The notes beneath the pieces were generated by a model. The model did not search any database and was not told where the DNA came from. It worked only from the letters and a program-made list of their open reading frames with translations. Shown here piece by piece: positions 7,950-37,801 of a DNA stretch of 39,520 nt. Location: UHGV virus genome UHGV-0819691. One strand, 5' to 3'. Both the position numbers and the translations under genes were made by a program. This DNA is from a virus. The first letter of the stretch is position 1. The number at the start of each line of letters is the position of its first letter.

Positions 7950-8055
7950 ATGTATCCTTTTATGGATTAATGAAAGGATGTTTCACATAGTTATACTTCT
8001 GTATATTTGAAAAGTTTTACTTTGATTTTTAAATAGAAAGACATTTGGGTTATAT

Positions 8056-8134: not shown

Positions 8135-8365
8135 TTATATTTGAAGCCATTAAAAAGCATACCATATAACTGTAAAAAATAATGGGAAAAAGACTTATAA
8201 TTGGAGTGATAGTTAATTAGTGACTTATTTTTGATTTTATAGCACTGATACTATAAAATATAGATATCATCATATTACACAATCTTAATACTAACTTAAA
8301 AAATATCTCCTTTCATAAGTATGGTGATAAAATCCGTTCCGGGCTACCTTTTTAGGTAGCCTACT

Positions 8366-8775: not shown

Positions 8776-8945
8776 TACCAGATAATTATACAGCGCAACA
8801 GTATATTGAAGATATTTACAATGTTAGATCTGAAATACAAAGAGTTCTAGATAGAATTGAAAATGAAATTGGTAAGATAATGATGTAAATGGAAAGATCG
8901 TGATAAAGTTTTTGTTACTATTTTTAATAATGCAGCAAAAAAATA

Positions 8946-8964
8946 TTGCCACCATTTTGCCACC
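8946..8964 (+). repeat. Two direct TTGCCACC repeats (cluster 1)
   Basis: TTGCCACC at 8946-8953 and 8957-8964. The same 8-mer recurs twice more plus once inverted at 9205-9246, next to the integrase 3' end. Confidence 0.4.
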
Positions 8965-9204
8965 GATGACTGAGGTTTTCTCAGGTGTTTTGAAATGACC
9001 TAAAGATAGAAGAGATTATTTAGTTCCTTTATAACCTTTAATACTAGAAGCTTAGAGACTATCTTAGATTAATAGAGAATAGTACAGTTAGATTATTGCG
9101 AAAAGAAGCCTTCATGGCCGTTCTGAAAATGGATGAGGACGAACCGAAGAAATAGCAAGGTTTGTTTGAAAACAGTGTAAAAAATAAACCATGTTTACAT
9201 GGAT

Positions 9205-10581: not shown

Positions 10582-11202
10582 TTAATTAGGTAAGTTATCG
10601 ATAGCATATTGTGCTTGCTCGGTCGTATATTTTTCATATACCAATTGGTCATAAAGACCATCTTTAGAAAAAGCAGAATAATCTAAATAGTCTTTAGCAG
10701 CTTGAAGTGCATTCTCGTTCCAATCTGCGTTAACATTATCAATAGCATATTGAGCTGCATCAGCAGGGTACTTTTCATATATCAATTGATCATAAAGTCC
10801 CTGCTGAGAAAAAGCAGAATAATCTAAATAGTCTTTAGCAGCTTGAAGTGCATTTGAAGATTCAAGCGATACATCGTTAGAAGTTGATGATTCCACTGAT
10901 GAATCAGAAGAAATGGATGGATTGCTACTTTCTTCTAATGTAACTGATGTAGAAGTTGATGAGTATTGTGATTCGCTTAAACTAGAATATTCAGTATCGG
11001 AGATATTTTCCGATGTGGATGACTCGGTTTGGCTTTTAACAGTATTATCATCTCCACCACTTAATGCACCACCAACGATGAATACAACCAGAACCACAAG
11101 AATCCAAAACCAAACTCTTTTATAAAAAGGTTTTTTCTCCTTCATTACGTAAGTTTTTCCATCTTCCCCTGTAACTTTTTTCTTCACCATTTTTTCCTCC
11201 AA
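10582..11202 (-). CDS. Ltp-like superinfection-exclusion protein (206 aa): N-terminal TM anchor, Ser/Thr-rich linker, two tandem Ltp-type repeats
   Basis: Two ~48-aa repeats ALQAAKDYLDYSAFSxxGLYDQLxYEKY..AQYAIDN match the repeat-domain pattern of the Streptococcus thermophilus TP-J34 Ltp family. A TM helix (WFWILVVLVVFIVGGALSG) replaces the usual lipobox Cys. Canonical position between int and repressor. Confidence 0.65.
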   Translation of the reverse strand: MEEKMVKKKVTGEDGKTYVMKEKKPFYKRVWFWILVVLVVFIVGGALSGGDDNTVKSQTESSTSENISDTEYSSLSESQYSSTSTSVTLEESSNPSISSDSSVESSTSNDVSLESSNALQAAKDYLDYSAFSQQGLYDQLIYEKYPADAAQYAIDNVNADWNENALQAAKDYLDYSAFSKDGLYDQLVYEKYTTEQAQYAIDNLPN

Positions 11203-11320: not shown

Positions 11321-12385
11321 CTATAGAAATTTTTGAACTATATCAGTAATTTGTTTTGAATAGCTATAAATGTCTATAGGCTCTTTCAACTCATAAACTG
11401 TATGATTATCATCGTTTAATTCAATTTTCATTCCATTTGTATTGAAACGAACTCTTAGAATCCATTTTCTGATATTGTCATCTAATAATATATTGAAGTA
11501 ACTTCTGTTGTCTCGATAGAATAATCGGTCTAAAGGAATAGTATCTACTAAAACAACTTTACAAATAGTATAGGCCTCTAATTCTTCAGGAGTGGTAACA
11601 ATTTCACTATCAGTTTCATCTGTTGTATCAGAATCTGATTTAGTTTCTGTATCCTCAACAGTAACCGATGTTTTCAAAGCAGCGCTTAATTTATCATTAA
11701 CTTTTTCAGCGATAAATTGGTTTAATCCTTTTTTTATAATTGGTTTAAATTTTTCAATAGTTTGCTTTGTTTTCATTCCGTCATAAATTTCGCCAAGAAG
11801 ATATTTGACAAAATTTTCCGTTGGTTCGTTTAGCTCAGAAGACAGGTAAGCCTTTAATGAATTTAAGTATTTAAGTTCTGCTGCAGAACTTGTAATCTTG
11901 TCTACGTCGAAATTGTCTTTATGAAATTTTGCTAACTCTGGAAGTTGGCTGTCTTTAATTTTTGTAATATTAATAGTTAAAAAAGGAGTAAGATCCATTT
12001 TATTTGGTTCGTCTAAATCAGTAAAGAACTTGTATTCCTCGCCGTTCGTCAATATACCAAATTTAGAAGTAGTGGTTCCAAAATATCTAAATAGTTGAGA
12101 ATCATGTTTTGTTAACTTTTCATTGATCGATTTTGCTTCTATAAGTATAGTTGGTTGCCCGTCAAGAACAATTGCATAATCAACTTTTTCGCCTTTCTTT
12201 ATACCTACATCAGCAGTAAACTCTGGTACAAACTCTGTAGGATTAAACAAGTCATAACCAAGTGCAACAAAGAAGGGCATAATTAATGAGGTTTTTGTTG
12301 CTTCTTCTGTACCAATACTATCTTTTAATTCAACCACTCTTTTACCTAATTGTTTCAAGCTATCTTGAAATTTTTCCATTTCCAT
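11321..12385 (-). CDS. PD-(D/E)xK nuclease-fold protein (HsdR_N / Mrr-like N-terminal domain) with an uncharacterised C-terminal domain (~355 aa)
   Basis: RBS AGGAGG 7 nt before ATG 12385, with a second ATG 2 codons later; the annotated 12496 start has no RBS. Motif ...VDYAIVLDGQPTILIEAKS (D...E-A-K) is the PD-(D/E)xK core, as in the type I HsdR N-terminal domain. Confidence 0.5.
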   Translation of the reverse strand: MEMEKFQDSLKQLGKRVVELKDSIGTEEATKTSLIMPFFVALGYDLFNPTEFVPEFTADVGIKKGEKVDYAIVLDGQPTILIEAKSINEKLTKHDSQLFRYFGTTTSKFGILTNGEEYKFFTDLDEPNKMDLTPFLTINITKIKDSQLPELAKFHKDNFDVDKITSSAAELKYLNSLKAYLSSELNEPTENFVKYLLGEIYDGMKTKQTIEKFKPIIKKGLNQFIAEKVNDKLSAALKTSVTVEDTETKSDSDTTDETDSEIVTTPEELEAYTICKVVLVDTIPLDRLFYRDNRSYFNILLDDNIRKWILRVRFNTNGMKIELNDDNHTVYELKEPIDIYSYSKQITDIVQKFL

Positions 12386-12523
12386 GATGAAACCTCCTAA
12401 TAGTATTGCTCCCACTAAGGCAGGGAGCGATAGTCTTCCCAACAAAAAGTATTTGAATTTATGTAATCGCTTTCCCCGCAAAGTCAAAAAATTCAATACT
12501 TAATTATTCAAACATTAAAAATT

Positions 12524-12961
12524 TCAAATTAAAAATTTATAAGCATCTTTCGGAAGTCCATATAGTTTAGTCAATAAATCAACTTCTCTTGGAAATTGAT
12601 CCGTGTCATCTTTGTAAAGAGAAACGATGAGATTAGCAGCAAAGCAATTTGCCTCACTCTCTGATTTGCTCCTAGATAATCGTGTAGAGACGTAATAGCT
12701 AGATAGTTCTTTGTGAAAAAGGGCATGGCCAAGTTCGTGGGCGCAAATATAGAAACGCTCTTCGGAGTACTTAAGACTGTCATTTAAAAAGATAATAGGT
12801 TCGTCTAAAATTTCCTGAAATTGTCCTTTTGGGTTATTTAGAAAAAGAACAAATTCTACGCTTATGCCCATTTTTTCACAAATTATAAAAGGATTAGCGG
12901 ATTGATATTTCCGCTTTAAATCTCCAACTAGATTTACTACATCCAACTCCATACAAATCAC
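12524..12961 (-). CDS. ImmA/IrrE-family metalloprotease (anti-repressor protease of the lysogeny switch)
   Basis: HEXXH motif CAHELGHALFH. Immediately downstream of, and co-oriented with, the XRE repressor, as in the ImmR/ImmA pair. Confidence 0.75.
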   Translation of the reverse strand: MICMELDVVNLVGDLKRKYQSANPFIICEKMGISVEFVLFLNNPKGQFQEILDEPIIFLNDSLKYSEERFYICAHELGHALFHKELSSYYVSTRLSRSKSESEANCFAANLIVSLYKDDTDQFPREVDLLTKLYGLPKDAYKFLI

Positions 12962-19407: not shown

Positions 19408-19869
19408 TTGACTAAAATATTAGATGCATGTTGTGGTAGTCGAATGTTTTGGTTTGATAAACAGAATCCAAACGTAATTTTTATGGACATTCGGAAACAA
19501 TACGAAGAACTAAATAGCGGACATGTCGTTGATATCAATCCTAATGTCATTGGAGATTTCAGAGATATGCCATTTGAAGATGAATCATTTTATCATGTAG
19601 TATTTGATCCGCCACACTTGCTTAAAGCAGGCGAGAATAGCTGGTTGGTCAAAAAGTATGGAAAATTAAATCCCGAAACTTGGAAAGAAGATTTAGCATT
19701 AGGATTCAAAGAATGTTTCAGAGTATTAAAGCCAAATGGAACTCTTGTATTTAAATGGAACGAGGATCAAATCAAGCTATCAGAAATATTGAATGCAATT
19801 GATTATGTGCCATTATATGGAAATAAGAGAGCTAAAACACACTGGTTAGTATTTATGAAGAGTATCTAG
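19408..19869 (+). CDS. Small orphan DNA N6-adenine (or N4-cytosine) methyltransferase (153 aa, TTG start)
   Basis: Motif IV FDPPH (DPPY-type) plus upstream LDACCGS (SAM-binding motif I-like). No adjacent restriction gene. Confidence 0.5.
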   Translation: MTKILDACCGSRMFWFDKQNPNVIFMDIRKQYEELNSGHVVDINPNVIGDFRDMPFEDESFYHVVFDPPHLLKAGENSWLVKKYGKLNPETWKEDLALGFKECFRVLKPNGTLVFKWNEDQIKLSEILNAIDYVPLYGNKRAKTHWLVFMKSI

Positions 19870-19890
19870 CTACCTCGTGAAATTGTAGGA

Positions 19891-20268
19891 TCAATTTTGA
19901 TTAAATATGTAATTTCTGAATTTACCAGATAATGGGAAGGTAAACATGCAAATTAAAAGTATCGTTTGGAAAATTAAAACTATAGTTAATTCTGTAGCGT
20001 TGAATTTTAAGTACAAGCTTAAATGTATTCCCCATTCAATCAAATTTAATCCAATTAAATAAAAGTAGTATCTCTTTTTAATCTTACAGTTTTTAAGAAA
20101 ATAGTAGCTAATATAATAATCTAATAAGACAAGTATAACCAATATATGTTTATCTATAGTGACTATAGTGTCATGTTTTTCTGAGAGTCTATGGAAATAC
20201 ATTAATAATGTTGGTAAAGGAATATATATTGTTAATAATGATATAAAGAAAAAGACTATAAATGGCAT
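19891..20268 (-). CDS. Opposite-strand small membrane protein (125 aa, ~4 TM), AT-rich moron
   Basis: RBS GGGAGTG 5 nt before ATG (minus strand). Very AT-rich. Sits antisense inside the rightward early operon, with a 120-bp promoter-bearing gap on its 5' side. Confidence 0.5.
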   Translation of the reverse strand: MPFIVFFFISLLTIYIPLPTLLMYFHRLSEKHDTIVTIDKHILVILVLLDYYISYYFLKNCKIKKRYYFYLIGLNLIEWGIHLSLYLKFNATELTIVLIFQTILLICMFTFPLSGKFRNYIFNQN

Positions 20269-25073: not shown

Positions 25074-25388
25074 ATGTTTAAAAACGAATTGTCTCAAAAT
25101 CGCTACAGAGAAAAATTACGCCGCTCTTTAATAAGCCAATTGGAAAGTCAGAAAACAAATATTGAGCCATTCTTAGATAATGTTGATCGTTATATCAGTT
25201 TATGGGAAACGGCGATATCACTGGAAGAAGATATATCCGAGAACGGCATTAGATTGGAGAATGGTAAAAAGAATGAATCAGTAGCGTTGCTTGTTTCTGT
25301 CAACAAACAAATGGGATTGATGTTGGATAAACTTGCCATTACTCCTGAATTGGTAGGTGAAGCAAATGAATCAATTCCTGAGTTATAA
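25074..25388 (+). CDS. terS: Terminase small subunit (P27-family-like)
   Basis: 104 aa directly upstream of and overlapping terL. Pattern ...RYISLWETAISLEEDISENGIRLENGKKNES..LVSVNKQMGLMLDKLAITPE is typical of P27-type TerS. Confidence 0.65.
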   Translation: MFKNELSQNRYREKLRRSLISQLESQKTNIEPFLDNVDRYISLWETAISLEEDISENGIRLENGKKNESVALLVSVNKQMGLMLDKLAITPELVGEANESIPEL

Positions 25389-27060
25389 GCATATTGAAAA
25401 TTGGTTCAAAGCTATAGAAGAAGGCACTATCAAGGTATGCAAAGAGCAATTATTGCTAAAAAATTATCTAGAAGAAAGAGTCTTTACTAGAGAAGATATT
25501 TACTTCGATAAGCAGATGGTAGAGGATTCAATCAATATACCAGCACAATACTTTCCATTCGAATTAATTCCGTGGGAAAAATTTCTACAATGTTTTATTT
25601 ATGGTGTTCGATGGAAAAAAGATAAAACACTAGTGTTCAATAGATATCTTTCATTAATGGGACGTGGTAATGGTAAAACTGGTTTTGCTTCTTGGAACAA
25701 CTTCTTTCTACTCACCGCTAAACACGGTATTAAAAATTATGATATTGATATCTATGCCAATAATGAAAGCCAAGCAAAGACTAGTTTTGATGATGTATTT
25801 AAAGTAATTAAAGATCATCCTGATTTAGATAAAAAAGTATTTAAAGCTACGAAGGAAGTTATTCAAAATATCGCTACAAATAGCAAACTTCGTTATAACA
25901 CGGCAAACGCTAGAACAAAAGACGGGAAGCGACCAGGTGCAAACCGCTTTGATGAAATTCACGAAAATGAAGATTATTCAATGATAAATGTGGCTACTTC
26001 TGGTGGTGGTAAAATTCGAGATTATAGAGAATTTTATGATACAACTAATGGTCATGTTCGTGGTGGTCCGCTTGATGACATTATAGAAGAATCAAAAATG
26101 ATTCTTTCTGGAGAACTTGGAATTGACAAGGATGGAGCAGAATTTTCTAGTTTGTTTCCATTTATTTGTCGCTTGGATAACGATAATGAAGTTGATGATC
26201 CCGACATGTGGGAAAAAGCTTGTCCAACTATTAATTACAATGCAGATTTAAAACGGAAAATGTTTCAAGAATACTCTCAAATGCAACGTAATGCTGGTTT
26301 AAGACTTACGTTCATGACAAAACGAATGAACAGACCTATGGAAGATACACGATTTGCTGTTGCTTCATATGATGATGTTCTGCATACGAAAGAAAAAGAA
26401 TTTCCTGAAAAAATGGATGAAGTGATAGGAACAGTCGATTTTGCTGATAGACGAGATTTTGCCAGTGTTGGGTTGCTAGGAAAATATGATAAAGATGTGT
26501 ATTTTACCCAACATACTTTTATCCACGAATCAGCTCTTCGATTACAGAACATAAAACGAGAGGTTATAGATATTTCTATAGATCAAGGAAAATCACAAAT
26601 CGTTCATGGGAAAAATATAGAAGCTGATTATATTGTAGGTTGGTTTCTTGAAATGAGTAATAAATATTATATTAAAAAAATCGCTATGGATATGTACCGT
26701 GCAAAAATATTGAAGCCCGCTTTAGAAGAAGCAGGTTTTACTGTGGAAATTGTTCGAAGCGGATCTGTTACACATGGTATGTTAAAAGATCTGGTTGATG
26801 ACCTTTTTATTAATCAACGTTTATTTTTTGGTGACGATGCGATTATGCGTTGGTATTGCATGAATGTATATGAAGAGCATATTTCTAATGGAAATATACG
26901 CTATGAAAAAATAGAACCTGAAACTAGAAAAACGGATGGCTTTTTTTCATTCCTTCATGGTTTGAATTTTTTAGATGATATTTATGATTCTGCTCCTGTA
27001 ACAGTCACAAATAGCTCAGTAGAAAATACAGGAACTGGATTTACTCCTCTAGTATTCTAA
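25357..27060 (+). CDS. terL: Terminase large subunit
   Basis: Walker-A-like LMGRGNGKTGFAS, length 567 aa. Followed by the portal. Confidence 0.8.
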   Translation: MKQMNQFLSYKHIENWFKAIEEGTIKVCKEQLLLKNYLEERVFTREDIYFDKQMVEDSINIPAQYFPFELIPWEKFLQCFIYGVRWKKDKTLVFNRYLSLMGRGNGKTGFASWNNFFLLTAKHGIKNYDIDIYANNESQAKTSFDDVFKVIKDHPDLDKKVFKATKEVIQNIATNSKLRYNTANARTKDGKRPGANRFDEIHENEDYSMINVATSGGGKIRDYREFYDTTNGHVRGGPLDDIIEESKMILSGELGIDKDGAEFSSLFPFICRLDNDNEVDDPDMWEKACPTINYNADLKRKMFQEYSQMQRNAGLRLTFMTKRMNRPMEDTRFAVASYDDVLHTKEKEFPEKMDEVIGTVDFADRRDFASVGLLGKYDKDVYFTQHTFIHESALRLQNIKREVIDISIDQGKSQIVHGKNIEADYIVGWFLEMSNKYYIKKIAMDMYRAKILKPALEEAGFTVEIVRSGSVTHGMLKDLVDDLFINQRLFFGDDAIMRWYCMNVYEEHISNGNIRYEKIEPETRKTDGFFSFLHGLNFLDDIYDSAPVTVTNSSVENTGTGFTPLVF

Positions 27061-27079
27061 CTTGAAAGGAGGTGAGAAA

Positions 27080-28258
27080 GTGGGGATTTTTCAAAAGGCG
27101 GTAGGATACTTCACAAAAAAAGCAACAGTTCCTTTAGAAGAATATTTTTGTAAATTGCAAGTTGATTTTGTGTATCGAAAATTTGCAATTGAAACTTGTA
27201 TTGATTTGATTGCAAATGCGATGAGCAAAGCGGAATTCAAGTCATATGAAGATGGAAAAAATAAAAAGAATGATCTTTACTATAGGCTAAATGTAGCTCC
27301 TAATAAGAAAAATAATGCAACAGAATTTAGAAAAAAACTGATCAGGAGATTAATATTCTACAATGAAGTATTGATCGTTTCTCCGTCTAATAATTCTAGC
27401 GAAATATTTATTGCGGATAGTTGGGATATCACAGAGTATGCATTAAAAGATGATGTGTTTTCTCAAGTGCAAATTAACAACATAGTCCTTGATAGAGAAT
27501 TTCTAGAAAGTGATGTTATCTATATAAAATACGCAGATCAACAAATTAGGCAACTAGTCGATGCGTATTATCAAGCGTATGGGAAACTCATTTCTAGTGC
27601 CATGAATGTTTACAAGCGTTCTAACGCTCGTAGATACGTACTGAAAGGGAATTTATTCCGACCGCAAGACAATACAACACAAGACCAAATCAATAAAATG
27701 ATGACATCGCAGTTCAAACCATTCATGGAAGCGGACAATGCAGGGGCAGTATTCCAACTACAAGAAGGATTCAATTTAGAAGATTTCAGCGGAAACTTCC
27801 AAAGCAATTCAAGAGATATAAAAAACTTAATAGACGACATCTTTGAGATGACAGCAGCAGCGTTTCACGTTCCGAAAAACCTACTAAAGGGAGACATGAG
27901 TGGGTTATCGGATCAAGTGGACGCTTTTTTAATGTTCGAAATCATTCCAATTGCTGAACTTATTCAGGATGCGTTTAACGCTAGTCTCTATGAAGCAGAA
28001 GAATACTTGTCAGGGAATTTTGTACGTGTTGATACAACTATGATCAAGATTACTAGCTTCAAAGATTTGGTTGACGCTATTGATGTAGGCATTAGAAATG
28101 GGGTATTTACAATCAACGAAGGAAGAGAACGCGTTGGAAGTGATCGCTCTGATAAGGCGATGGCAGATGAAATATTTATAACTAAAAACAACCAACAAGT
28201 ATCGAAAGGAGGTGAGGCGAATGACGACAATGAAAACATTTCTAGCGGTAAAGAATGA
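27080..28258 (+). CDS. Portal protein (HK97-family-like)
   Basis: ~390 aa directly after terL and before the prohead protease. GGAGGTG RBS before GTG 27080; the TTG at 27062 is the alternative start. Confidence 0.6.
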   Translation: MGIFQKAVGYFTKKATVPLEEYFCKLQVDFVYRKFAIETCIDLIANAMSKAEFKSYEDGKNKKNDLYYRLNVAPNKKNNATEFRKKLIRRLIFYNEVLIVSPSNNSSEIFIADSWDITEYALKDDVFSQVQINNIVLDREFLESDVIYIKYADQQIRQLVDAYYQAYGKLISSAMNVYKRSNARRYVLKGNLFRPQDNTTQDQINKMMTSQFKPFMEADNAGAVFQLQEGFNLEDFSGNFQSNSRDIKNLIDDIFEMTAAAFHVPKNLLKGDMSGLSDQVDAFLMFEIIPIAELIQDAFNASLYEAEEYLSGNFVRVDTTMIKITSFKDLVDAIDVGIRNGVFTINEGRERVGSDRSDKAMADEIFITKNNQQVSKGGEANDDNENISSGKE

Positions 28259-28907
28259 AGGAACAGTACCGCAAATTTTTATTCAGGGATTTATTGGCTC
28301 TAGTTGGTTCTTTGAAGGGAATACTGATAAGGGAATCAAAAATATTTTGGATAGTCTAGGTGATCAAGAAGAAATTGAAGTAGTGATTAATTCAAACGGT
28401 GGAGACGTATTTCAAGGGATTGCTATTGGGAACTTACTTAAGTCAAATAAAGCAAAAGTTAACGTTGTGATTAACGGCTTAGCCGCTAGTGCTGCTTCAA
28501 TTATCGCAATGGCTGGCGATACTATAAAAATTTACAACAATGCACAATTGATGATTCACCGCGCTTCCACATATGGAGAAGGAAATGTCGATGACTTCCG
28601 CACGATTGCTGATCAATTGGAATCAATTGATAAATCGGTAAAGGCTTCATATAAAACACGATTCAACGGTACAGATGAAGCATTGCAAGAACTTCTTGAA
28701 AAAGAATCGTTTATGGATGCAGAAACAGCTTTGAGTTATGGATTGGTCGATGAAATTATCGATGCAGAAAATAGCGCAGGTACTGAAGCTAAGAAAGAAC
28801 AAAGCGTTGAAGAAATTTTGAATGACGTTGAAGAAAAAAGAGCAGAAAAAATTGCTGCATTTACAGCAGCATTAAATAAAACATTTGGACAAGGAGATGC
28901 AAAATAA
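28212..28907 (+). CDS. ClpP-like (S14) prohead maturation protease
   Basis: NSNGGDVFQGIAIGNLLKS...INGLAASAASIIAMAGD...MIHRAS is the ClpP-fold serine protease pattern. Confidence 0.7.
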   Translation: MRRMTTMKTFLAVKNEGTVPQIFIQGFIGSSWFFEGNTDKGIKNILDSLGDQEEIEVVINSNGGDVFQGIAIGNLLKSNKAKVNVVINGLAASAASIIAMAGDTIKIYNNAQLMIHRASTYGEGNVDDFRTIADQLESIDKSVKASYKTRFNGTDEALQELLEKESFMDAETALSYGLVDEIIDAENSAGTEAKKEQSVEEILNDVEEKRAEKIAAFTAALNKTFGQGDAK

Positions 28908-30067
28908 TGACAGTTAAAAATTTAAAAGGTGTAACAGCTGCAAGCGACCAATTGATGAAAGCTTTTAAAGATGGTAACGAAGAATCTTTTAGCGCAGCTA
29001 TGGTAAGTTTATCTAAGGAAATTCAGGATAAAATTTTAGAAGAAGCAACAGCAAAAAATCAAGATCAATTAGTATTAATGAACCGTGGTCAGCGTGTACT
29101 AACTACACAAGAAACAAAATTCTATAACGAAGTAGTGAATAACGAAGGTTTTGCAGGAGTTGAAGAATTAGTACCAGCTACTGTATTTGAACGCGTATTT
29201 GAAGATCTAGAACAATCTCATCCACTATTGCAAAAAATTACTTTTGTTAACACAACTGGTGTAACAGAATGGATTGTGTCACGTGGAGTCAATCCAGCAT
29301 GGTGGGGTAAACTTTGCGAAGCTGTTAAAAAAGTTTTAGATAATGGCTTTGACGTAATTAACATGAAGCAGTTCAAGCTATCAGGTTATATTCCTGTATG
29401 TAAGGCAATGCTTGACTTAGGTCCAGTATGGTTAGATCGTTATGTCCGTACTGTTTTAGTAGAATCATTGAGAATTGCATTAGAACAAGCAATCGTTGAT
29501 GGTACTGGTAAAGATATGCCAGTCGGAATGATGCGTGATATGAGCAAACAAACTAGCGGAGAATATGCTGAAAAAACAGCAGAACCTATTACAGCTTTAG
29601 ATGCTGCAACTATGGGCGGTTTGATGGCACGACTATCAAAATTCAATATCGAAGGCGTAGATGATCCGATTTATCGTAATGTAAATCCTTCTGATGTGGT
29701 CCTAATTGTGAATCCAACAGATTACTGGTCTAAAGTTTTCCCAGCTAAAACCGTACTAACTGCTAATGGAGAATATGTACAAGTATTGCCAGTACCAGTT
29801 TCAGACTTGCAGTCAACAGCTGTGCCAGAAGGAAAAGCAGTTATTGGGGTAGCTTCAGATTACTTCATGGGTGTAGGATCTACGCTAAAAATTGAAGCTT
29901 CAGATGAATACCATTTTGTTGAAGACGAACGCATTTATCTAGCTAAACAATATGCAAACGGACAACCTAAACGTAATGATAGTTTCATTGTATTAGATAT
30001 TAGCGCTTTGGGAACTACTACTACAACTACAAAACCAACAACCACAACAACTACAACACAAGCGTAG
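28907..30067 (+). CDS. Major capsid protein (HK97 fold) with C-terminal T6-KP-T7-QA tail
   Basis: Position after the protease, 386 aa. The C-terminus ...LGTTTTTTKPTTTTTTTQA* is encoded at 30014-30064. Confidence 0.7.
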   Translation: MTVKNLKGVTAASDQLMKAFKDGNEESFSAAMVSLSKEIQDKILEEATAKNQDQLVLMNRGQRVLTTQETKFYNEVVNNEGFAGVEELVPATVFERVFEDLEQSHPLLQKITFVNTTGVTEWIVSRGVNPAWWGKLCEAVKKVLDNGFDVINMKQFKLSGYIPVCKAMLDLGPVWLDRYVRTVLVESLRIALEQAIVDGTGKDMPVGMMRDMSKQTSGEYAEKTAEPITALDAATMGGLMARLSKFNIEGVDDPIYRNVNPSDVVLIVNPTDYWSKVFPAKTVLTANGEYVQVLPVPVSDLQSTAVPEGKAVIGVASDYFMGVGSTLKIEASDEYHFVEDERIYLAKQYANGQPKRNDSFIVLDISALGTTTTTTKPTTTTTTTQA

Positions 30068-30076
30068 GTGATCAGA

Positions 30077-30952
30077 ATGAAGTATATTCTTTGTCAGCCG
30101 GCAATCAATCGGTTTAAATGGGAGCTTGAAGTTTGTTTAACTAATCTGAAGAAACTAGGAATCAAAGATATCGTATTGCTTTTCAGCAGACACGATGATC
30201 AGATTCCTATTTTTTTTGAGAAGGAATATGGCGTTGAAGTTCATGTGTACGATGATCTGCGGGACGACAAAGAGTATATTCCTTCGATTAAACCATATTT
30301 ATGGTGGAAATATTTAGAAGAAGATCATTCGCGTGAGGACGACCGATATTTCTATATCGATTCGGATGTCATTTTCAATAAAAGAATTAATTTGCGCAAA
30401 TTGCCTTCTAAAGATGATGTTTGGTATTGTAGCGACTGCTGTAGTTATCTAAGTCTTGATTATATTAGAAGCTGTGAAAACGGAGAAAATATTCTAAAAG
30501 ATATGGCAAATATTGTAAATGTTAGAGTAGAATCTTTGGAAACTATAAACACTAATTCAGGAGGCGCACAGTGGGTTATTAACCGTCCTAAAGCGAATTA
30601 TTGGAAAAAGGTTTATCTGGATTCTAATCGGCTATATCGCTACCTTAGAGGGCAAAAAACAAATGTACAGATTTGGACAGCCGAGATGTGGGCACAGCTT
30701 TGGAACATGATGTATTTCAATATTGGTCCTAAAGTTCACGAGGAATTAAACTTTTGTTTTGCTACTGATCCAATAGAAAAATTTAAAGAAGTAAAAATCT
30801 TGCATAACGCTGGAGTAACAACAAATGATGAAGATTTATTTTTCAAAGGGAGATACGTTACTTCCACGCCTTTTGATGAAGATTTATCATTTGTAAACAA
30901 GAAAAAATGCTCTTACGCATATGTTAAAGCAATTAAGGCGGTGGTTAGATGA
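30077..30952 (+). CDS. Putative GT-A-fold glycosyltransferase (DxD motif) embedded in the head module
   Basis: AGGTGA RBS overlapping the capsid-gene stop; ATG 30077 (or GTG 30068). hhhhDxD context RYFYIDSDVIF (nt ~30341-30373). Cytoplasmic, no TM. No head-module role known for this position. Confidence 0.35.
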   Translation: MKYILCQPAINRFKWELEVCLTNLKKLGIKDIVLLFSRHDDQIPIFFEKEYGVEVHVYDDLRDDKEYIPSIKPYLWWKYLEEDHSREDDRYFYIDSDVIFNKRINLRKLPSKDDVWYCSDCCSYLSLDYIRSCENGENILKDMANIVNVRVESLETINTNSGGAQWVINRPKANYWKKVYLDSNRLYRYLRGQKTNVQIWTAEMWAQLWNMMYFNIGPKVHEELNFCFATDPIEKFKEVKILHNAGVTTNDEDLFFKGRYVTSTPFDEDLSFVNKKKCSYAYVKAIKAVVR

Positions 30953-31260
30953 CGCCTGAACAAGTGACTGAAGAATTGCTAATAGCTGTGAAGGATAATA
31001 TTTACGTTACCTGGAACGAAGAAGATGAGTCAATTAAAAAGATGATAGCTAAAAATGCTGTTTATCTTCAAAGTAAAGTGAGTACAACACTTTCTTTTTC
31101 TCCTGAAAGCTTAGAATACGGATTGCTAATCGAAAGATGTAGATACGACTGGAATCGTGCTTTAGATGAGTTTGAACAAAATTTCGCTAGTGAGTTATTA
31201 GGTTTCATTCAACATTATGCGCTACAAGAATATATTGCAGGTGATGGGAATGGCGAATAA
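30949..31260 (+). CDS. Head-tail connector (gp6-like)
   Basis: ~100 aa acidic protein in the canonical position. Pattern EELLIAVKDNIYVTWNEEDESIKKMIAKNAVYL. Confidence 0.5.
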   Translation: MTPEQVTEELLIAVKDNIYVTWNEEDESIKKMIAKNAVYLQSKVSTTLSFSPESLEYGLLIERCRYDWNRALDEFEQNFASELLGFIQHYALQEYIAGDGNGE

Positions 31261-31603
31261 TCGTAGACTCGAAGAAACATTCAACGATGGTTGGTTAAAG
31301 ATTTTGACGCAAACTACCAAAAGAAATGAACTAGGAAAAAAGATTGGTGTAGAAGATACAGAAATCACTTCTTTAAAATTTAGAAATCTTTCCATGAGAG
31401 ATAGTGATATAACAGCTATGGATGCGATGGGATCGAAATTAACTAAGAAAGTAAAGACTCCATTTCATCCGATCGCCAAGAAATTTAATAAAGATCAATA
31501 TTTTATCGTAATCGATAGTATGCGTTACAACGTTATCTATGCCGATTACGATAATTTTTATATCTATTTTTATCTTGAAAGTGTGGGTGAATATGGTTAT
31601 TGA
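31250..31603 (+). CDS. Head-tail adaptor / head closure protein
   Basis: ~117 aa. ...TKRNELGKKIGVED...F..I.SMRYN... matches the Phage_H_T_join pattern. Confidence 0.45.
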   Translation: MANNRRLEETFNDGWLKILTQTTKRNELGKKIGVEDTEITSLKFRNLSMRDSDITAMDAMGSKLTKKVKTPFHPIAKKFNKDQYFIVIDSMRYNVIYADYDNFYIYFYLESVGEYGY

Positions 31604-31994
31604 TAATTCTAAAGAAAAAGAACGTTTAAATAAGCAAATTTCTGCTATCAAAACTTCCTTAGAAGAACATTTTAAGCTCAAACTCTTTCAAGACTCTGTT
31701 GGCGAGGATGAGCTACCTGATGATTTTAATTACTTCATTCTCGAAACAGGAGAAATAGAAATGATCACTGAACCAAAATATAGCGTGGGTCAAAATCTAT
31801 ATCTAACTTTCTATTCAGAAAATAGAGAAGATTTAACAGGAGATTCACTAGATATTATTTCATTGATTCAAAATCGTTCGATTCGTTTTCAGAGAATGGA
31901 TCCCAACCATTTAAAACTAGAAAATCAAGATCGCTATATCGATCAATTGGTATTTACGTTTAGACGATTATTGAAGAGTGATTGTCATGGCTAA
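31593..31994 (+). CDS. Tail component (gp10-like), hypothetical
   Basis: Position between adaptor and tail-completion genes. Confidence 0.3.
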   Translation: MVIDNSKEKERLNKQISAIKTSLEEHFKLKLFQDSVGEDELPDDFNYFILETGEIEMITEPKYSVGQNLYLTFYSENREDLTGDSLDIISLIQNRSIRFQRMDPNHLKLENQDRYIDQLVFTFRRLLKSDCHG

Positions 31995-32391
31995 AAATAG
32001 TTGGGAGCTAAAAATAAATGGGCATGATGAACTTCTTGTGCGGATGGAACGCTATTCAAGCGAGAGTGAACGACTGATCAATGAAGCATTGAAATCGAAG
32101 GGTTCGGCTATTGCAGTGGATAGGATTACAGAAAAAATTCCTGTTTCTGAAGCAGATTTAAGAAGAGGACACCAACACGCAAAAAATAGTCGTCCACTTA
32201 AGACTCAATATATTAATTTGGGTTTCATCATTAGACCTACAAGAAAATTTGAGTATTTAAAATATCCTGATTTGGGGATAGGTACTTCTAAAAGAAATCA
32301 GCCAGACGAATTCATGAGAAGAGGATTAGGTCTTGCACTTGATCCAATTACAGAACTTCTGATTCGTCAATTCGATAAATTAAATAAATAG
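31987..32391 (+). CDS. Tail completion protein (HK97 gp10/gp11-like)
   Basis: Position immediately upstream of the major tail protein. ~135 aa. Confidence 0.35.
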   Translation: MAKNSWELKINGHDELLVRMERYSSESERLINEALKSKGSAIAVDRITEKIPVSEADLRRGHQHAKNSRPLKTQYINLGFIIRPTRKFEYLKYPDLGIGTSKRNQPDEFMRRGLGLALDPITELLIRQFDKLNK

Positions 32392-32402
32392 GAGGAACAA
32401 CA

Positions 32403-33008
32403 ATGGCTAAAACAACAACTGTAGTAACAACGTTCGATAACGTGAGTATCAAACGAATTGCTTTTAATTTTAAGAATGCAGAAAATGCAATCGCAACAGA
32501 TTGTAACGGACAATTAGATGGCGAAACAGAAATGCAAACGGTGGTTAAAAAATGTGGAGCGACAGAAGTAAAATCAAAATCTAAACCAATCAATATGACG
32601 GTAACAATTACTGCACATGTACCGATGGAAGTTTATCGACGTTTCAATGGGTTGAAACAAGATGAACGTATTAAACCAGGCATTTACTCTTACGGTCCTG
32701 ATTCCGTAGGCGAAGATTTCTCACTTGCTGCAGAGATCGTGGATGACTTCGAAGAAAATAGCAAGTTAGTTGGTATGTTAGCATGCACTTCGAATACAGG
32801 ATTAACATTCTCTATTGAAAATGGTGCGGATGAAGTAGCTGCTTTAGAACTAGAAACAAAAGTTATGCAAGATGAATTTGGTAAATTCTATCATGAAGCA
32901 ATTGTTGCAGAACTTGAAGAAGACTTAACAGATCAATGGATGACGAATCTATCTGCTGATGTGATTAAAAAGAGTTCAACAACCACTACTACAACGACTC
33001 AAGCTTAA
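32403..33008 (+). CDS. Major tail (tube) protein with C-terminal SS-T7-QA tail
   Basis: RBS TAGGAGGAACAACA. 201 aa, immediately before the G/GT chaperone pair. The C-terminus ...KKSSTTTTTTTQA* is encoded at 32973-33005. Confidence 0.6.
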   Translation: MAKTTTVVTTFDNVSIKRIAFNFKNAENAIATDCNGQLDGETEMQTVVKKCGATEVKSKSKPINMTVTITAHVPMEVYRRFNGLKQDERIKPGIYSYGPDSVGEDFSLAAEIVDDFEENSKLVGMLACTSNTGLTFSIENGADEVAALELETKVMQDEFGKFYHEAIVAELEEDLTDQWMTNLSADVIKKSSTTTTTTTQA

Positions 33009-33029: not shown

Positions 33030-33392
33030 ATGAACGAAGATTACTCAAAAATTGAACTAAACGATGGAACAATTTTGAATTTAGAACCTAAACTGAATAT
33101 CAAGAAATTATTGATGATCAATAGAGATTTTAACACAGACGAGTTTGCAAAAATGACTGTGGGAAAAGGATCCATGGATATTTCTGTTATTCAAGGTGCA
33201 AAGGCTGTGTATATTGCTTACCGCCAAGCGAACATGACTGATTATATTTCATTCGATGAATTTATCGATAAATGGGATTTTGATATGGCTACTGCCAGCT
33301 ATATTTATCAATTGATGATGTTCAAACAAGCACGAGATGCCTATCAAAAAGAATTCGAAAAAGCAAATAAGGAAAAAAAGCTTCAAAAGTAA
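33030..33392 (+). CDS. Tail assembly chaperone G
   Basis: 120 aa between the major tail protein and tape measure. Followed by an overlapping -1-frame ORF. Confidence 0.6.
   Translation: MNEDYSKIELNDGTILNLEPKLNIKKLLMINRDFNTDEFAKMTVGKGSMDISVIQGAKAVYIAYRQANMTDYISFDEFIDKWDFDMATASYIYQLMMFKQARDAYQKEFEKANKEKKLQK
33374..33380 (+). other. Programmed -1 ribosomal frameshift slippery heptamer A_AAA_AAG (G to GT fusion)
   Basis: Zero-frame codons AAA(33375) AAG(33378) preceded by A33374. The -1 frame from 33380 is continuous with ORF 33395-33577, giving a ~183-aa GT product. Confidence 0.6.
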
Positions 33393-33394
33393 AA

Positions 33395-33577
33395 ATGCCA
33401 AAGCTCTTAGTTGAAACGTGGGTCGATGTCTATTCGATGTTGACCGACGTTTTTTCTATGCCTTCAGATTTGGTTTTAAGCGATATCTGTTTAGATGACA
33501 TTTTGCAAATGGCTTACAACAAGAGTGCTTATGAAGGATGGAAAAACTATGCAATAAACCAATCCCATAAAAACTAA
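33395..33577 (+). CDS. T portion of the tail assembly chaperone GT (-1 frame extension)
   Basis: 60-aa ORF in the -1 frame relative to G, ending just before the tape measure RBS. Confidence 0.5.
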   Translation: MPKLLVETWVDVYSMLTDVFSMPSDLVLSDICLDDILQMAYNKSAYEGWKNYAINQSHKN

Positions 33578-33593: not shown

Positions 33594-36500
33594 ATGGCTA
33601 AAAAGAGAACAGAAGCAGAAGTAACTTTCATAGCTAACGATGACGGATTGAAATCTACGTTAAAAGAAATCAGTGCTGAATTAACTAAAAATAGAGCAGA
33701 ATTAAAACTAGAACAAGCTCAATTGCAACAGACTGGTTCTGAATTAGACAAGTTAGGAAGTAAATTATCTTCTTTAGAAAAGCAGTATGAATTACAAAGT
33801 CAAAAAGTTGAAGTAACTAGTCAACGTTTAGCCAATGCCAAAAAATATTATGGAGAAAATTCCACCGAAGTTCAGAAACTTGAAAGAGAACTGATTAATC
33901 AACAAACAGCACAACAACGTTTGTCAAACGAAATTGATAAAACGAGTAATGCACTAGCTCAAGCAAAAGGCGAAATACAGACGTACGAGTCTACAATGCA
34001 ACAGTTGGACAGTGAACAGAAAAATGTTCAAGCTAGTGCTTCTCTGATTGAATCAGAATATAAAAAATGGCAAGCAACTGCTGGTCAATCAGCTTCTGAA
34101 TCCGAGAAATTAGCGAAAGCCCAAGAATTTGTTTCTCAACAATCTGAAAATGCGGAGAAAACGATAGATATCCTAAGACGACAGTTAGAAGCTACACAGT
34201 CTGAATTTGGCGCTACATCCACAGAAGCAATGCAGATGGAAGCGAAGCTTAATGATGCTGAACGTGAATTTGAAGAGTTAGGACAAGCTGCTAAAAATGT
34301 AGATACAACTAACTTGGACGATATCGGAAGCAAAATAGATATGAATAATTTAATGGAAGCTTCTGACGTTTTAAGCGACATTGGCGATAAGCTTACAGAA
34401 TTAGGGAAACAAGCAGTGGACTCAGCTAACAGTGTAGGTAGTTCCCAGAGTAAGATACAAGCTAATTTTGGTTTGACTAAACAAGAGGCTGAAGAATTAA
34501 CGAATGTAGCCAGAGACATTTATTATAAAGGTTTTGGAGAATCGTTAGATCAGTCCACAGATGCATTGATTTTGGTAAAGCGTAATTTAGGCGATTTAAA
34601 TAATCAAGATTTACAAAATATCACGGAACAAGCTATGGTCCTAGAAAACACCATGGGCGCTGATATGGATGAAACGTTACGTGGTGTAAATGGCTTAATG
34701 GTCAATTTCGGCTTGAGTGCTCAAGATGCAATGGATTTAATGGTTTCGGGTACTCAAAACGGTTTAGATAAAACGCACGAATTAGGCGACAATATGGCAG
34801 AATATAGCCAATTATGGAGTCAAATGGGATATTCAGCTGATGAAACGTTCGGAATGCTTCAAAATGGTTTAGATGCGGGTGCTTATAACCTTGATAAAGT
34901 CAATGACTTAGTTAAGGAAATGGGAATATCGTTAACAGATGGTCGATTTGAGCAAAACATGGATATGTTTAGTGAAAGTACTAGAAAAGCTTTTGAAGAG
35001 TGGAAAAATGGCGGAGGAACACAAAAAGACGTTATTAATTCCATGATTCAAGATTTTAGCAATATGGATGGTCAATACGACCAATTAAATAAAGCTTCGA
35101 CAATTTGGTCTGCGCTTGGCGAAGATAATGCGATGAAAGTTGTCCAATCTTTAACTGATGTTAACCATACATTTGATGATGTTAGTGGATCTGCACAAAA
35201 AATGAATGAAGATTCTACTACTCCGTTGCAAGAGTTGAACGGGAAAATAGCTGAATTAAAGGATTCATTAGCTCCTATAGGCAACACAATCATAGATGCA
35301 CTCGAACCAGTAATTGATTTTCTAGGAAAGATGGCTGATGCGTTTAATAATCTTCCACAACCAGTACAGGATTATGCCGTAGCAATTGGCGGATTGACTG
35401 CTGCATTTACTTTATTAATGCCAATAATAGTTGGCTTCATGGCTCTAGGTGGTCCTACTACATTAATAATAGGAGCAGTTATTACTGCTATTGCTGGAGT
35501 TATAGCAATTATAAAAAACTGGGGTGCAATTACTGACTGGTTTAAGGGAATATGGAGTAAATTCACTGATTGGTTGGGTGGTACTTTGGAAAGTATAAAA
35601 GAAGGTGCCTCATCAGTTTGGGATGGAGTCAAAGAAACCTGGTCTGGATTTGTAGATTGGGTTCAAGAAATTTGGCAAGGAGTTTCTGATTGGTTTGGAG
35701 AGTTATGGAGCGGATTAGTTGAAGGAGCTTCCAACATCTGGCAAGGAGTCCAAGAGACTTGGCAAGCATTCGTTGATTGGGTTTCAAATATTTGGAACGG
35801 AGTCAAAGAAGTATGGTCGATTATTTGGGCAGACATTGTAGGAATTGTTCAAATACCATGGACATTAATAACGTCATTGATTCAAGCTGGTATTAATATT
35901 ATCGTGGGTATTTTTGATGTAGCTGGACAGTTATTAGGCACAGCTTGGCAAGCTGTTTGGACACCTATTTCTGATTTCCTTAAAAATATTTGGGATACTA
36001 TGACACAATGGGTAAGCATCGCCTGGAATGGAATTGTAACTACATTCCATACTATATTTGATCCAATTGTGGCATGGTGGAACGGTATATGGACATCCAT
36101 TAGTACTACGGCTTCAAATATTTGGAATTCAATTAGTGCAACAGCTTCTAGTATTTGGAACAGTATCAAGAATACAATCACTAGCTTGGTACAAGCAGCT
36201 GCTACAGTAATTCAAAATATTTGGTCAACTGTATCTAGTTGGTTAGGTGGAATTTGGAATTCAATCAGCTCTACAGCATCAAATATCTGGAATAGTGTGA
36301 CAAGCAGTATAAGCAATGCTATAAATGCAGCTAAAAGTGCCATTCAAAGTGTTTGGAATAGCATATCTTCGTGGATTAGTGGAATTTGGAACGGTATCAA
36401 AAACACTGCTTTAAACCTTTGGAATGGAATTACAAGCACTATTAGCTCTAAAGTAAACGACGGAAAAAATGCAATTTCAAGCGGTTGGTCCAATCTAACA

Positions 36501-37013
36501 AGTATTGTTTCCGGCATATTCAATAATGTTAAAAGTACAATTGCTAACATTTGGGAAGGTATCAAAAAGACTGTTAGCGCTCCAATTGATTGGATTAGAG
36601 ATAAAATCAGCAGCCTTTTTGATAATTTGAATATTTCGATACCACATATTCCGTTACCACATTTTAAATTGAGTGGGGAATTCAATCCATTGAAGGGAAA
36701 AATCCCAACGTTGGGTGTTGATTGGTATGCGAAAGGTAGTGTGTTTAATTCTCCGAATATTATCGGTGTCGGTGAAGCAGGGCCTGAAGCAGTTTTACCT
36801 TTGAAAAGATCTGTGCTGCAAGAAATTGGTGATCGTATCTTGAGTAGCACCTCAGTTTCATCTAGGGCACAAACGGTTCAACCTGTGAACAATTACGAAT
36901 TCAATTTCACAATTGATGGTAACGCAGATGAAGTTACTATGAAGCAAACAACTCAACAAATCATTGATAACATTACAAAAGTTCAAAATGATAATGCTTC
37001 GGCATGGCGTTAA
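33594..37013 (+). CDS. Tail tape measure protein (1139 aa)
   Basis: N-terminal long coiled coil, central TM-like segment, then a long Trp-rich ~11-residue tandem repeat region (xxIWNxISxxAS...). Confidence 0.85.
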   Translation: MAKKRTEAEVTFIANDDGLKSTLKEISAELTKNRAELKLEQAQLQQTGSELDKLGSKLSSLEKQYELQSQKVEVTSQRLANAKKYYGENSTEVQKLERELINQQTAQQRLSNEIDKTSNALAQAKGEIQTYESTMQQLDSEQKNVQASASLIESEYKKWQATAGQSASESEKLAKAQEFVSQQSENAEKTIDILRRQLEATQSEFGATSTEAMQMEAKLNDAEREFEELGQAAKNVDTTNLDDIGSKIDMNNLMEASDVLSDIGDKLTELGKQAVDSANSVGSSQSKIQANFGLTKQEAEELTNVARDIYYKGFGESLDQSTDALILVKRNLGDLNNQDLQNITEQAMVLENTMGADMDETLRGVNGLMVNFGLSAQDAMDLMVSGTQNGLDKTHELGDNMAEYSQLWSQMGYSADETFGMLQNGLDAGAYNLDKVNDLVKEMGISLTDGRFEQNMDMFSESTRKAFEEWKNGGGTQKDVINSMIQDFSNMDGQYDQLNKASTIWSALGEDNAMKVVQSLTDVNHTFDDVSGSAQKMNEDSTTPLQELNGKIAELKDSLAPIGNTIIDALEPVIDFLGKMADAFNNLPQPVQDYAVAIGGLTAAFTLLMPIIVGFMALGGPTTLIIGAVITAIAGVIAIIKNWGAITDWFKGIWSKFTDWLGGTLESIKEGASSVWDGVKETWSGFVDWVQEIWQGVSDWFGELWSGLVEGASNIWQGVQETWQAFVDWVSNIWNGVKEVWSIIWADIVGIVQIPWTLITSLIQAGINIIVGIFDVAGQLLGTAWQAVWTPISDFLKNIWDTMTQWVSIAWNGIVTTFHTIFDPIVAWWNGIWTSISTTASNIWNSISATASSIWNSIKNTITSLVQAAATVIQNIWSTVSSWLGGIWNSISSTASNIWNSVTSSISNAINAAKSAIQSVWNSISSWISGIWNGIKNTALNLWNGITSTISSKVNDGKNAISSGWSNLTSIVSGIFNNVKSTIANIWEGIKKTVSAPIDWIRDKISSLFDNLNISIPHIPLPHFKLSGEFNPLKGKIPTLGVDWYAKGSVFNSPNIIGVGEAGPEAVLPLKRSVLQEIGDRILSSTSVSSRAQTVQPVNNYEFNFTIDGNADEVTMKQTTQQIIDNITKVQNDNASAWR

Positions 37014-37063: not shown

Positions 37064-37801
37064 ATGACTGATTGTATACATTCTATAATCGATGGATTTC
37101 CTGATTATTTGCATAAATTGGCTTTAGCTGAAAGACCAACCATACCTTCTCCAAAAAGACAGAGAGTTGAAACTTCTGTTTTAGGAAGGTTAGGTGGCTT
37201 AGTGCAAGATTACTCGTTTGAAGACATGTCGTTTACATTGCACTATAACTATTTAGAGGATGTGGAAGACCATCAAGCGTTCAAGCAATCGTTTTATATC
37301 ATGCGTCATTGGTTAAACTATGCAAAGAAATTAGAATTCTCTGATGATCCCAATGTCTATTATGTTATCCAGACTATCGATATTGGGGATGCAGAAAACG
37401 ATATCGTTGAATGGGGAGAGTTCGATGTAAACATTACTGCGAAACCATTCGCAAGAGTTCAAGAAGATGTGCCTATAACTGTAGATAAACCACGATCATT
37501 TAGCTTGCTGAATAATAGTTTAGAAGAAAGTTTTCCAAAGATTATCATCACTCCTTCAGCTACTTCATGCCAGTTCATCTTAAATGATTATGTGTTTAGT
37601 TTCGAAGGCTTAGTAGTAGGAACTGACGTAGTCATTGATAGTGATTTAATGCTTTGCTACGAAGAGCAATTGGACGGAGATATTTTAGATCGGTCCAATA
37701 AAATGAAGACCATGCAATATCCGACATTGCAAGTGGATATTAATCATTTTAATTGTACTGGTTTGAGCAAAATACAAATTTATCGTAACGGGTTAAGGTA
37801 G
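37064..37801 (+). CDS. Distal tail protein (Dit)
   Basis: 245 aa directly after the tape measure. Siphovirus Dit size and position. Confidence 0.6.
   Translation: MTDCIHSIIDGFPDYLHKLALAERPTIPSPKRQRVETSVLGRLGGLVQDYSFEDMSFTLHYNYLEDVEDHQAFKQSFYIMRHWLNYAKKLEFSDDPNVYYVIQTIDIGDAENDIVEWGEFDVNITAKPFARVQEDVPITVDKPRSFSLLNNSLEESFPKIIITPSATSCQFILNDYVFSFEGLVVGTDVVIDSDLMLCYEEQLDGDILDRSNKMKTMQYPTLQVDINHFNCTGLSKIQIYRNGLR

Follow-up and report, generated by a model that had tools for sequence, protein, structure and literature searches.

A predicted GT-A glycosyltransferase and matching poly-threonine tags on the capsid and tail-tube proteins of an Enterococcus faecium phage

Known virion glycosylation systems and the locus in UHGV-0819691

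To our knowledge, glycosylation of virions has been shown experimentally only for a few mycobacteriophages. In Che8, phage-encoded glycosyltransferases modify the capsid and tail-tube subunits, according to PMC12363180 and PMC10877033, and PMC12691614 and PMC12363180 state that glycosylation of mycobacteriophage virions impairs antibody recognition. Here we describe a locus in the UHGV virus genome UHGV-0819691 (39,520 nucleotides, analysed over its whole length and called the window below), which is a temperate Enterococcus faecium siphophage or prophage. Its major capsid protein (MCP) and major tail (tube) protein (MTP) have poly-threonine C-termini that finish identically in seven threonines (T7), Q, A and a stop codon, and the gene following that of the MCP appears, from its modelled fold, to encode a metal-dependent GT-A glycosyltransferase (GT) of GT8-like architecture. 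We think it probable that this enzyme O-glycosylates the threonines of these short, disordered C-terminal tags on both proteins. The features concerned are as follows.

28907-30067, + strand: MCP, HK97-type, 386 residues, with a poly-Thr C-terminus (Pfam Phage_capsid 2.2e-16; phrog_10 major head protein 1.2e-63; TIGR01554)
30014-30064, + strand: capsid tag TTTTTTKPTTTTTTTQA (13 Thr), abutting the stop codon; T6 run at 30014-30031, T7 run at 30038-30058, QA at 30059-30064, stop at 30065-30067
30066-30071, + strand: Shine-Dalgarno sequence AGGTGA of the GT gene, overlapping the capsid stop codon TAG, 5 nt before the ATG
30077-30952, + strand: predicted GT-A glycosyltransferase (GT8-like), 291 residues, phrog_4417
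30359-30367, + strand: DxD codons D95-S96-D97, directly after β-strand 90-93 of the AlphaFold2 model
30803-30805, + strand: codon of H243 (motif H-N-A-G), candidate third metal ligand by analogy with GT8 enzymes
32403-33008, + strand: MTP, 201 residues, with a poly-Thr C-terminus (phrog_117 major tail protein 7.1e-19), preceding putative chaperone and tape-measure genes
32973-33005, + strand: tail-tube tag SSTTTTTTTQA, predicted to be disordered; SST7 at 32973-32999, QA at 33000-33005

The original prediction had compared this locus with Che8, and as an analogy the comparison is apt. Both systems involve phage GTs together with capsid and tube subunits, although glycosylation here is predicted. 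In both, the substrates share a C-terminal feature: the Che8 capsid protein ends in NKTGS and the tube protein in YSDGS, while the two proteins of the window share T7-Q-A, a likeness at sequence level only. In both, a sugar coat is expected on the two most abundant virion surfaces. Homology to the Che8 enzymes was nevertheless rejected, on differing Pfam content and on hhalign probabilities below 1%. Che8 gp108 combines GT2 with Methyltransf_24/TylF, gp110 is GT25-like and gp109 is an orphan; hhalign of the window GT family gave a probability of 0.02% against gp110 and 0.6% against gp109. There is no Mycobacterium phage among the 77 phage records matched by tblastn. The three GT genes of Che8 lie at the far right end of the genome, far from the structural genes, whereas the window has one, inside the head module; and the acceptor in Che8 is not a poly-Thr tract, whereas here it would be a homopolymeric poly-Thr tag in phages of Firmicutes hosts. 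A further likeness is that Methyltransf_24, carried by gp108, is also fused to the GT domain in one long member of the window GT family.

Chlorovirus PBCV-1 (A64R) differs in being a eukaryotic giant virus that uses several enzymes, and its glycans sit on Asn within the folded capsid protein and not on a C-terminal tag. The ppGalNAc-transferases (GT27) resemble the proposed system in that they are retaining GT-A enzymes acting on dense, disordered stretches rich in Thr and Pro, and the layout of TTTTTTKPTTTTTTT is mucin-like; this is a likeness by description, with no homology claimed, and they are eukaryotic Golgi enzymes with a lectin domain. Systems of the Gtr/TarP type have a membrane-associated GT2 with a GT-C partner, or a moron position, and the GT of the window has neither. 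Glycostaining of ten phages, including E. coli JEP7 and B. cereus PBC2, revealed no glycoproteins (PMC12894461). In the open-access full-text literature we met with no report of poly-Thr tags, or of glycosylated virions, for phages of Firmicutes, which is absence of evidence only; this agrees with the earlier statement that nothing equivalent is established for phages of low-GC Gram-positives. Judged by these comparisons, the enzyme family, the acceptor tag and the host clade would be new, while the kind of system is already known from mycobacteriophages.

The poly-threonine tags and the predicted enzyme

The MCP ends in GTTTTTTKPTTTTTTTQA (over a longer stretch, DISALGTTTTTTKPTTTTTTTQA) and the MTP in KKSSTTTTTTTQA (over a longer stretch, VIKKSSTTTTTTTQA), in each case up to the stop codon. 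It had been claimed that both finish in T7-Q-A-stop and that no other structural protein is so tailed; the sequence agrees, and a six-frame scan for runs of five or more Ser or Thr residues found no further real open reading frame (ORF) of the window with such a tail. For the last nine residues and the stop, the MCP gene has ACAACCACAACAACTACAACACAAGCGTAG and the MTP gene ACAACCACTACTACAACGACTCAAGCTTAA. These differ at 7 of 30 nucleotides, all of them at synonymous or stop-codon positions, and the shared peptide does not therefore derive from a recent DNA duplication. Chance was rejected as an origin together with recent duplication on the same seven differences, and the estimated probability of a T7 run at a given site, about 1e-9, also means that the shared tag is not due to chance. 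To judge from these codons, the T7-Q-A peptide common to the two proteins is maintained at the protein level.

In an AlphaFold2 model of the MTP the core has a mean pLDDT of about 80, and residues 191-201, which are exactly the tag, fall below 50. The tag is thus predicted to be a flexible, disordered appendage. PDB sequence searches with the MCP and with the MTP gave no match, so that surface exposure of the tails rests on the disorder prediction and on general knowledge.

Close relatives of the window phage in IMG/VR provide a view of how the two tags evolve. In three of them (L046, L050 and L052) both tails end in KKA or KKV, not in QA. The MCP and MTP tags of L046 and of L050 are identical in DNA over the T7 block and the ending (ACAACCACAACAACTACAACGAAAAAAGCG, or the same finishing in GTG), and those of L052 differ at one synonymous position. 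Gene conversion between the two genes, which lie about 3 kb apart and are otherwise unrelated, accounts best for this identity, and the two tags of one genome would appear to evolve as equivalent, interchangeable units. Among 53 distinct tail pairs, 23 have the same residues after the threonines, as compared with 7.7 on average after shuffling; since the shuffle ignores lineage, matching endings within genomes are weak, suggestive evidence.

The stop codon of the GT gene overlaps the ATG of the next gene (ATGA, 30949-30952), and the position of the gene suggests that it is expressed late. The original prediction gave the protein 290 residues and the motif RYFYIDSDVIF; the motif is present, at residues 90-100, and the length is 291. 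Sequence-profile searches with the 291-residue protein gave no match in Pfam, NCBIfam or PDB, and in PHROGs the only match was phrog_4417, annotated as "unknown function". The 120 homologues among the matches listed are all called "hypothetical" or "prophage pi2 protein 34", or are nameless, and have no precomputed Pfam domain.

The AlphaFold2 model of the protein, generated from a 50-sequence alignment, has a pLDDT of 96.7 and a pTM of 0.92. It is predicted to consist of a single Rossmann-like α/β/α nucleotide-binding domain, with the N-terminus forming the first strand and helix of the Rossmann fold. A Foldseek search with the model against PDB matched GT8, GT24 and GT6 enzymes, at E of 4e-8 and weaker; against viral models, two uncharacterised phage proteins came first and were followed by viral GT8-type enzymes. 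We take the GT8, GT24 and GT6 families to be retaining GT-A enzymes, several of which act on proteins or glycoproteins, and the modelled enzyme is probably also retaining. In the model D95-S-D97 directly follows the fourth β-strand (residues 90-93), which we take to be the usual site of the metal-binding DxD in GT-A enzymes. The hydrophobic-DxD context had been read as a mark of a GT-A enzyme before any fold was available, and the model, the Foldseek matches and the placement of the DxD uphold that reading; GT-A enzymes were what the fold matched, and a confident fold of another kind was not obtained.

Conservation was assessed in 150 family representatives with at most 50% mutual identity. 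D95 and D97 are each kept in 147/148 of these and are invariant in A1. H243 is kept in 149/149, G246 in 148/149 and K257 in 149/149, and G163, W200 and M204 in 150/150. By analogy with GT8 enzymes, H243 is presumably a candidate third metal ligand. The relationship to those enzymes is one of fold. GT8 enzymes (LgtC, glycogenin, GlyE), GT24 and GT6 enzymes share 10-13% identity with the window GT in structural alignments, and no sequence relationship was detected, in that none of 50 diverse family members (0/50) matched Glyco_transf_8 or any other GT Pfam family even at E<=5. The spacing of the invariant H243-N-A-G246 and K257 is moreover unlike that of the GT8 motif HxxGxxKPW. A crude hydropathy scan found no transmembrane (TM)-like segment in the protein, and the GT is therefore presumably cytoplasmic.

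Distribution of the family, covariation with the tags and gene order

In an exhaustive profile search the family, clustered at 50% identity, comprised 874 clusters at E<=1e-3, of which 520 reached E<=1e-30. By tblastn the protein was found in 77 phage records, with Enterococcus, Lactobacillus, Lacticaseibacillus, Staphylococcus, Lactococcus and Clostridium as hosts. The family also occurs in phages of 85-140 kb, namely VPE25, SA2 and the herelleviruses Bacchae and Lpa804, all of which we take to be virulent. Many members are 500-780 residues long. Among ten long members examined, a GT2 domain (Glycos_transf_2), Glyco_transf_7C, Methyltransf_24 and a radical-SAM/SPASM domain were found in one each, the proteins with these fusions being the distant members P0203, P0207, P0220 and P0294. 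Fusion to further GT or methyltransferase domains places the GT domain in glycan-building contexts, and suggests that some distant relatives build or modify longer glycans.

For the analysis of covariation, flanks of up to 10 kb were examined, and a tag was defined as a same-strand ORF of at least 60 codons (stop to stop) with five or more consecutive threonines within the last 30 residues. All 177 fetched loci with a GT family member have at least one poly-Thr-tailed ORF. These loci form 19 clusters at 80% GT identity, all of which (19/19) are tag-positive. Every fetched IMG/VR locus with a family member has a tail, and poly-Thr tails are found in each of six divergent phages fetched (45-64% identity). 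The tails, each read up to the stop codon, include the following.

bIL285: MTP ending in KTTTTTTTTTRHD
phiCTP1: tube protein ending in TTTTTNAPITTTTTTV, small head protein in TTTTTVAPTTTTSTSQG and portal in TTTSTTEPITTTTTTMNNNEED
VPE25: MTP ending in TTTDTTTTTTTTTTAGK
SA2: MTP ending in DDSTTTTTTTTP
iLp84: MCP ending in VPTTTTTTTSK and MTP in ETTTTTTTSK; also a 125-residue protein made mostly of T7-T12 blocks
Bacchae (myovirus): three small T-tailed ORFs, on either side of the GT gene

The location of the GT gene varies, being after the MCP in the window, after the MTP in phiFL1A-type phages and between both elsewhere, and the tagged gene always adjoins it. The tagged proteins are mutually non-homologous: they comprise MCPs of phrog_10 and phrog_544, MTPs of phrog_117, 238, 88 and 6686, a portal (phrog_64), a small head protein (phrog_909) and small proteins of phrog_14018. 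The tag has therefore been acquired repeatedly.

The phrog_14018 proteins that adjoin the GT in iLp84 (gp8; L086 6504-6881) and Bacchae (L085 19649-19996) consist of a domain of about 60 residues followed by several T7-T12 blocks spaced by VKP, VAP or EAP, and are candidate mucin-like decoration fibres. In SA2 (L084 19117-19930) an overlapping ORF in another frame (19667-19930) continues beyond the end of the MTP for about 60 Thr/Ser-rich residues, and a programmed frameshift may yield a longer tagged tube protein.

Loci without the GT were obtained by searching an alignment of MTP homologues against one genome per bacterial species, which gave 26 loci. In two of these the MTP is T-tailed, and there the GT and a T-tailed MCP are present as well. 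In the remaining 24 there is neither a T-tailed ORF nor, within 10 kb, a family member. The closest comparison is offered by a matched pair of loci. L305 is syntenic with the window from terminase to lysin, its MCP being 83% and its MTP 84% identical; it lacks the GT, with a 77-residue ORF in its place, and its MCP ends in NLAPASK and its MTP in ASTSNP. L307 (MCP 87% identical) has the GT, and its MCP ends in ATTTTTQPTTTTSSTTTTTTTTEAPKK and its MTP in STTTTTTSTTTTTTTTEAQTK. In L305 the GT gene and both tags would thus have been lost, or never gained, together, and the pair suggests that the gene and the tags on capsid and tube come and go as a set. The covariation of the gene with Thr-tailed virion proteins that the original prediction had led one to expect is therefore found: tails accompany the gene in 177/177 loci and are present in 0/24 loci without it, with co-loss in L305.

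Over 6 kb of its head-tail region the window shares 96.9% identity with Enterococcus phage 4995_1 (OP745419), a record that labels both the GT gene and the tail-tube gene "hypothetical protein". The remaining head and tail genes are as follows.

25357-27060: terminase large subunit
27062-28258: portal
28212-28907: ClpP-like prohead protease
30949-32391: four head-tail connector genes
33030-33577: two small ORFs in the usual place of tail assembly chaperones
33594-37013: tape measure
37064-37801: Dit

Distal tail and baseplate genes (88-2798), followed by lysis genes and cargo, open the window (1-9000), and Dit is near its end at 39520. Since the window ends just past Dit and begins with distal tail genes, it looks like a circular permutation of one phage genome of about 39.5 kb, or a prophage read across its ends, and not like two elements. 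The integrase (9249-10385) adjoins a pair of lysogeny-module ORFs on the - strand (10582-11202 and 11321-12496), comprising an Ltp-type superinfection-exclusion lipoprotein (phrog_4980; Pfam Lipoprotein_Ltp) and a 391-residue HSDR_N-domain endonuclease (phrog_4225). The early region contains a 153-residue class-I SAM methyltransferase-like ORF with marginal Pfam matches (19408-19869, + strand). Between a small holin-like ORF and the endolysin (4747-5766) there is a gene for a 452-residue protein with nine TM-like segments (3264-4622, + strand; Pfam DUF6056, 3e-127), which has a weak PHROG match to the family "GtrB glycosyltransferase for O-antigen conversion" and looks like a lysogenic-conversion moron for cell-surface glycan modification.

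Alternative explanations, proposed mechanism and significance

Several points weigh against glycosylation of the tags by this enzyme. There is phylogenetic redundancy among the 177 loci (near-identical E. faecium prophages account for about 76 and Lacticaseibacillus phages for 65), and the effective sample is about 19 lineages; the real weight of the covariation is in those 19 lineages, the non-homologous tag carriers and the matched pair L305/L307. In about half of the close E. faecium relatives (L001-L068) the MTP tail is degenerate, KKTSVVTTTATQSQ, with the GT and the complete capsid tag retained. In L019 the MTP tail (12876-12908) is frameshifted by a 1-nt deletion in an A7 run and ends in KKLQL, and here too the GT and the MCP tag remain. 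Such tails could come from errors in sequencing or from phase variation, or selection on the tube tag could have been relaxed, and they indicate that the MTP tag is not strictly required. In bIL285, VPE25 and SA2 it is the tube protein that is tagged, not the capsid protein. The GT assignment itself depends on a predicted structure whose global overlap is moderate (Foldseek TM about 0.5), the profiles of Pfam, NCBIfam and PDB sequences do not tie the family to any CAZy family, and the evidence is computational throughout, for every family member.

The association was also viewed from the side of the tag, by a blind IMG/VR search for seven Thr codons followed by two codons and TAA or TAG. The GT family is present in 14 of the 80 loci among the matches listed, the background being about 560 loci in 2.9 million contigs. 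A genuine ORF of at least 80 residues ending in T7 is present in 46 listed loci, and 34 of these have no family member in a flank that is often short, which is a further point against the proposal; a wider profile, made from the 150 representatives, found no remote family members in these 34. The idea that the tag is exclusive to this GT family was accordingly rejected, and poly-Thr tails are, as far as sequence comparison goes, more widespread than the enzyme family. Unrelated viral contigs (L186, L200, L218, L224, L187 and L236), some with 44-53% GC, encode tube-like and fibre-like proteins with C-terminal tails of T7 to T13 and endings such as SPFFTVTFVT13 and GDCTPTTTTTTTIP; these contigs have no GT family member in the flank examined. 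The poly-Thr tag may thus be a general marker of virion glycosylation, served elsewhere by other enzymes.

Three other functions for the GT-A-fold protein were considered. It could be an assembly factor, a lectin-like or structural binder of the tags, or an extender of sugars primed by the host, and we regard this as unlikely. The gene is indeed placed among structural genes, and the fold resembles that of the GlyE-type GT8 enzyme, which extends a sugar placed by another enzyme in the serine-rich-repeat adhesin pathway. However, the DxD, His and Lys residues are near-invariant over the 150 representatives, as expected for a catalytic site and not for a scaffold, and the fusions to GT and methyltransferase domains point to glycan building. 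As for an extender, no known host priming enzyme tracks the family across Enterococcus, Lactobacillus, Lactococcus, Staphylococcus and Clostridium.

Less likely again is that the GT modifies a host surface polymer, such as teichoic acid or an Epa-type polysaccharide, in lysogenic conversion or superinfection exclusion, with the Thr tails serving as unglycosylated hydrophilic spacers. Prophage GT-A enzymes that modify wall teichoic acid do exist (TarP), and the window has the nine-TM DUF6056 protein with its weak GtrB-family match. Against this, the GT gene is within the head-tail operon and not in a moron or lysogeny position, the family is found in the large phages that we take to be virulent (VPE25, SA2, Bacchae, Lpa804), the GT has no TM-like segment, and its fold is GT8-like and not GT2-like. 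The covariation and co-loss of gene and tags would also be left unexplained. A Gtr-like pairing of the GT with the DUF6056 membrane protein was rejected, since DUF6056 has no homologue in any of the 305 fetched loci, the near-identical 4995_1 included.

Glycosylation of phage DNA (hydroxymethyl-pyrimidine) against restriction is very improbable and was rejected: phage GT-A enzymes that glycosylate 5hmC exist and can be near structural genes (bioRxiv 10.1101/2023.12.21.572611), but the window ORFs scanned include neither a C5-methyltransferase with a TET/5mYOX pair nor a thymidylate-synthase-like hydroxymethylase, the structural neighbours are GT8, GT24 and GT6 and not the TarP/JGT-like group of that work, and the covariation with poly-Thr would again have no explanation.

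We therefore return to O-glycosylation of the poly-Thr tags as the preferred explanation. The suggestion that a dedicated GT decorates both virion surfaces through a shared tag is supported by the predicted fold, the conserved motifs, the covariation and the co-loss. In tailed phages the cytoplasm is where subunits of capsid and tube fold and are assembled, and the GT could act there, on the disordered C-terminal tails of the MCP and MTP. The donor would be a host nucleotide sugar, most likely a UDP-hexose, and the acceptors would be the tag threonines (13 Thr on the MCP; 7 Thr, with 2 Ser, on the MTP). If the enzyme is retaining, as its fold neighbours suggest, the product would be an α-linked hexose. 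Because the window has only one such GT, single sugars or short chains would be expected, on up to 13 hydroxyls per MCP subunit and 9 per MTP subunit; and because there are hundreds of copies of each protein, head and tail would acquire a mucin-like coat of sugar. The C-termini of HK97-fold capsid proteins and of siphophage tube proteins often bear surface-displayed extensions (gp10B of phage T7; Ig-like tube domains), so that the sugars would be expected to face outward. For the phage, such a coat might be a shield against antibodies, as in Che8, or against proteases; it might also keep the particles colloidally stable or let them adhere to mucus or to glycans of the cell wall.

Across Firmicutes phages, the enzyme and the tag seem to behave as a portable two-part module. 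A more far-reaching proposal is that a poly-Thr tail and an orphan GT-A enzyme form a self-contained, horizontally mobile glyco-tagging cassette, by which any virion protein that gained the tail would become mucin-like; on this our own judgement is evenly divided. Such a cassette would have spread among siphoviruses and myoviruses of Enterococcus, Lactobacillus, Lactococcus, Staphylococcus, Listeria, Bacillaceae and Clostridium, and its tags could be homogenised within a genome by gene conversion.

The analysis assigns a testable function to the widespread "hypothetical" family phrog_4417. If O-glycosylation of the tags is correct, virion glycosylation extends to a large group of Firmicutes phages, comprising phages of E. 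faecium, E. faecalis (VPE25-like), Staphylococcus (SA2-like), dairy lactococci and lactobacilli, and Clostridium. The sugar coat would then bear on immunogenicity and clearance in phage therapy, on behaviour in gut mucus and on particle stability, and would affect the interpretation of SDS-PAGE, mass-spectrometry and cryo-EM data. The enzyme and a tag of about 10 residues could also serve as a minimal pair for site-directed protein O-glycosylation and glyco-engineering. If the cassette proposal is also true, virion glycosylation would be common, and overlooked, in gut, dairy and therapeutic phages of Firmicutes.

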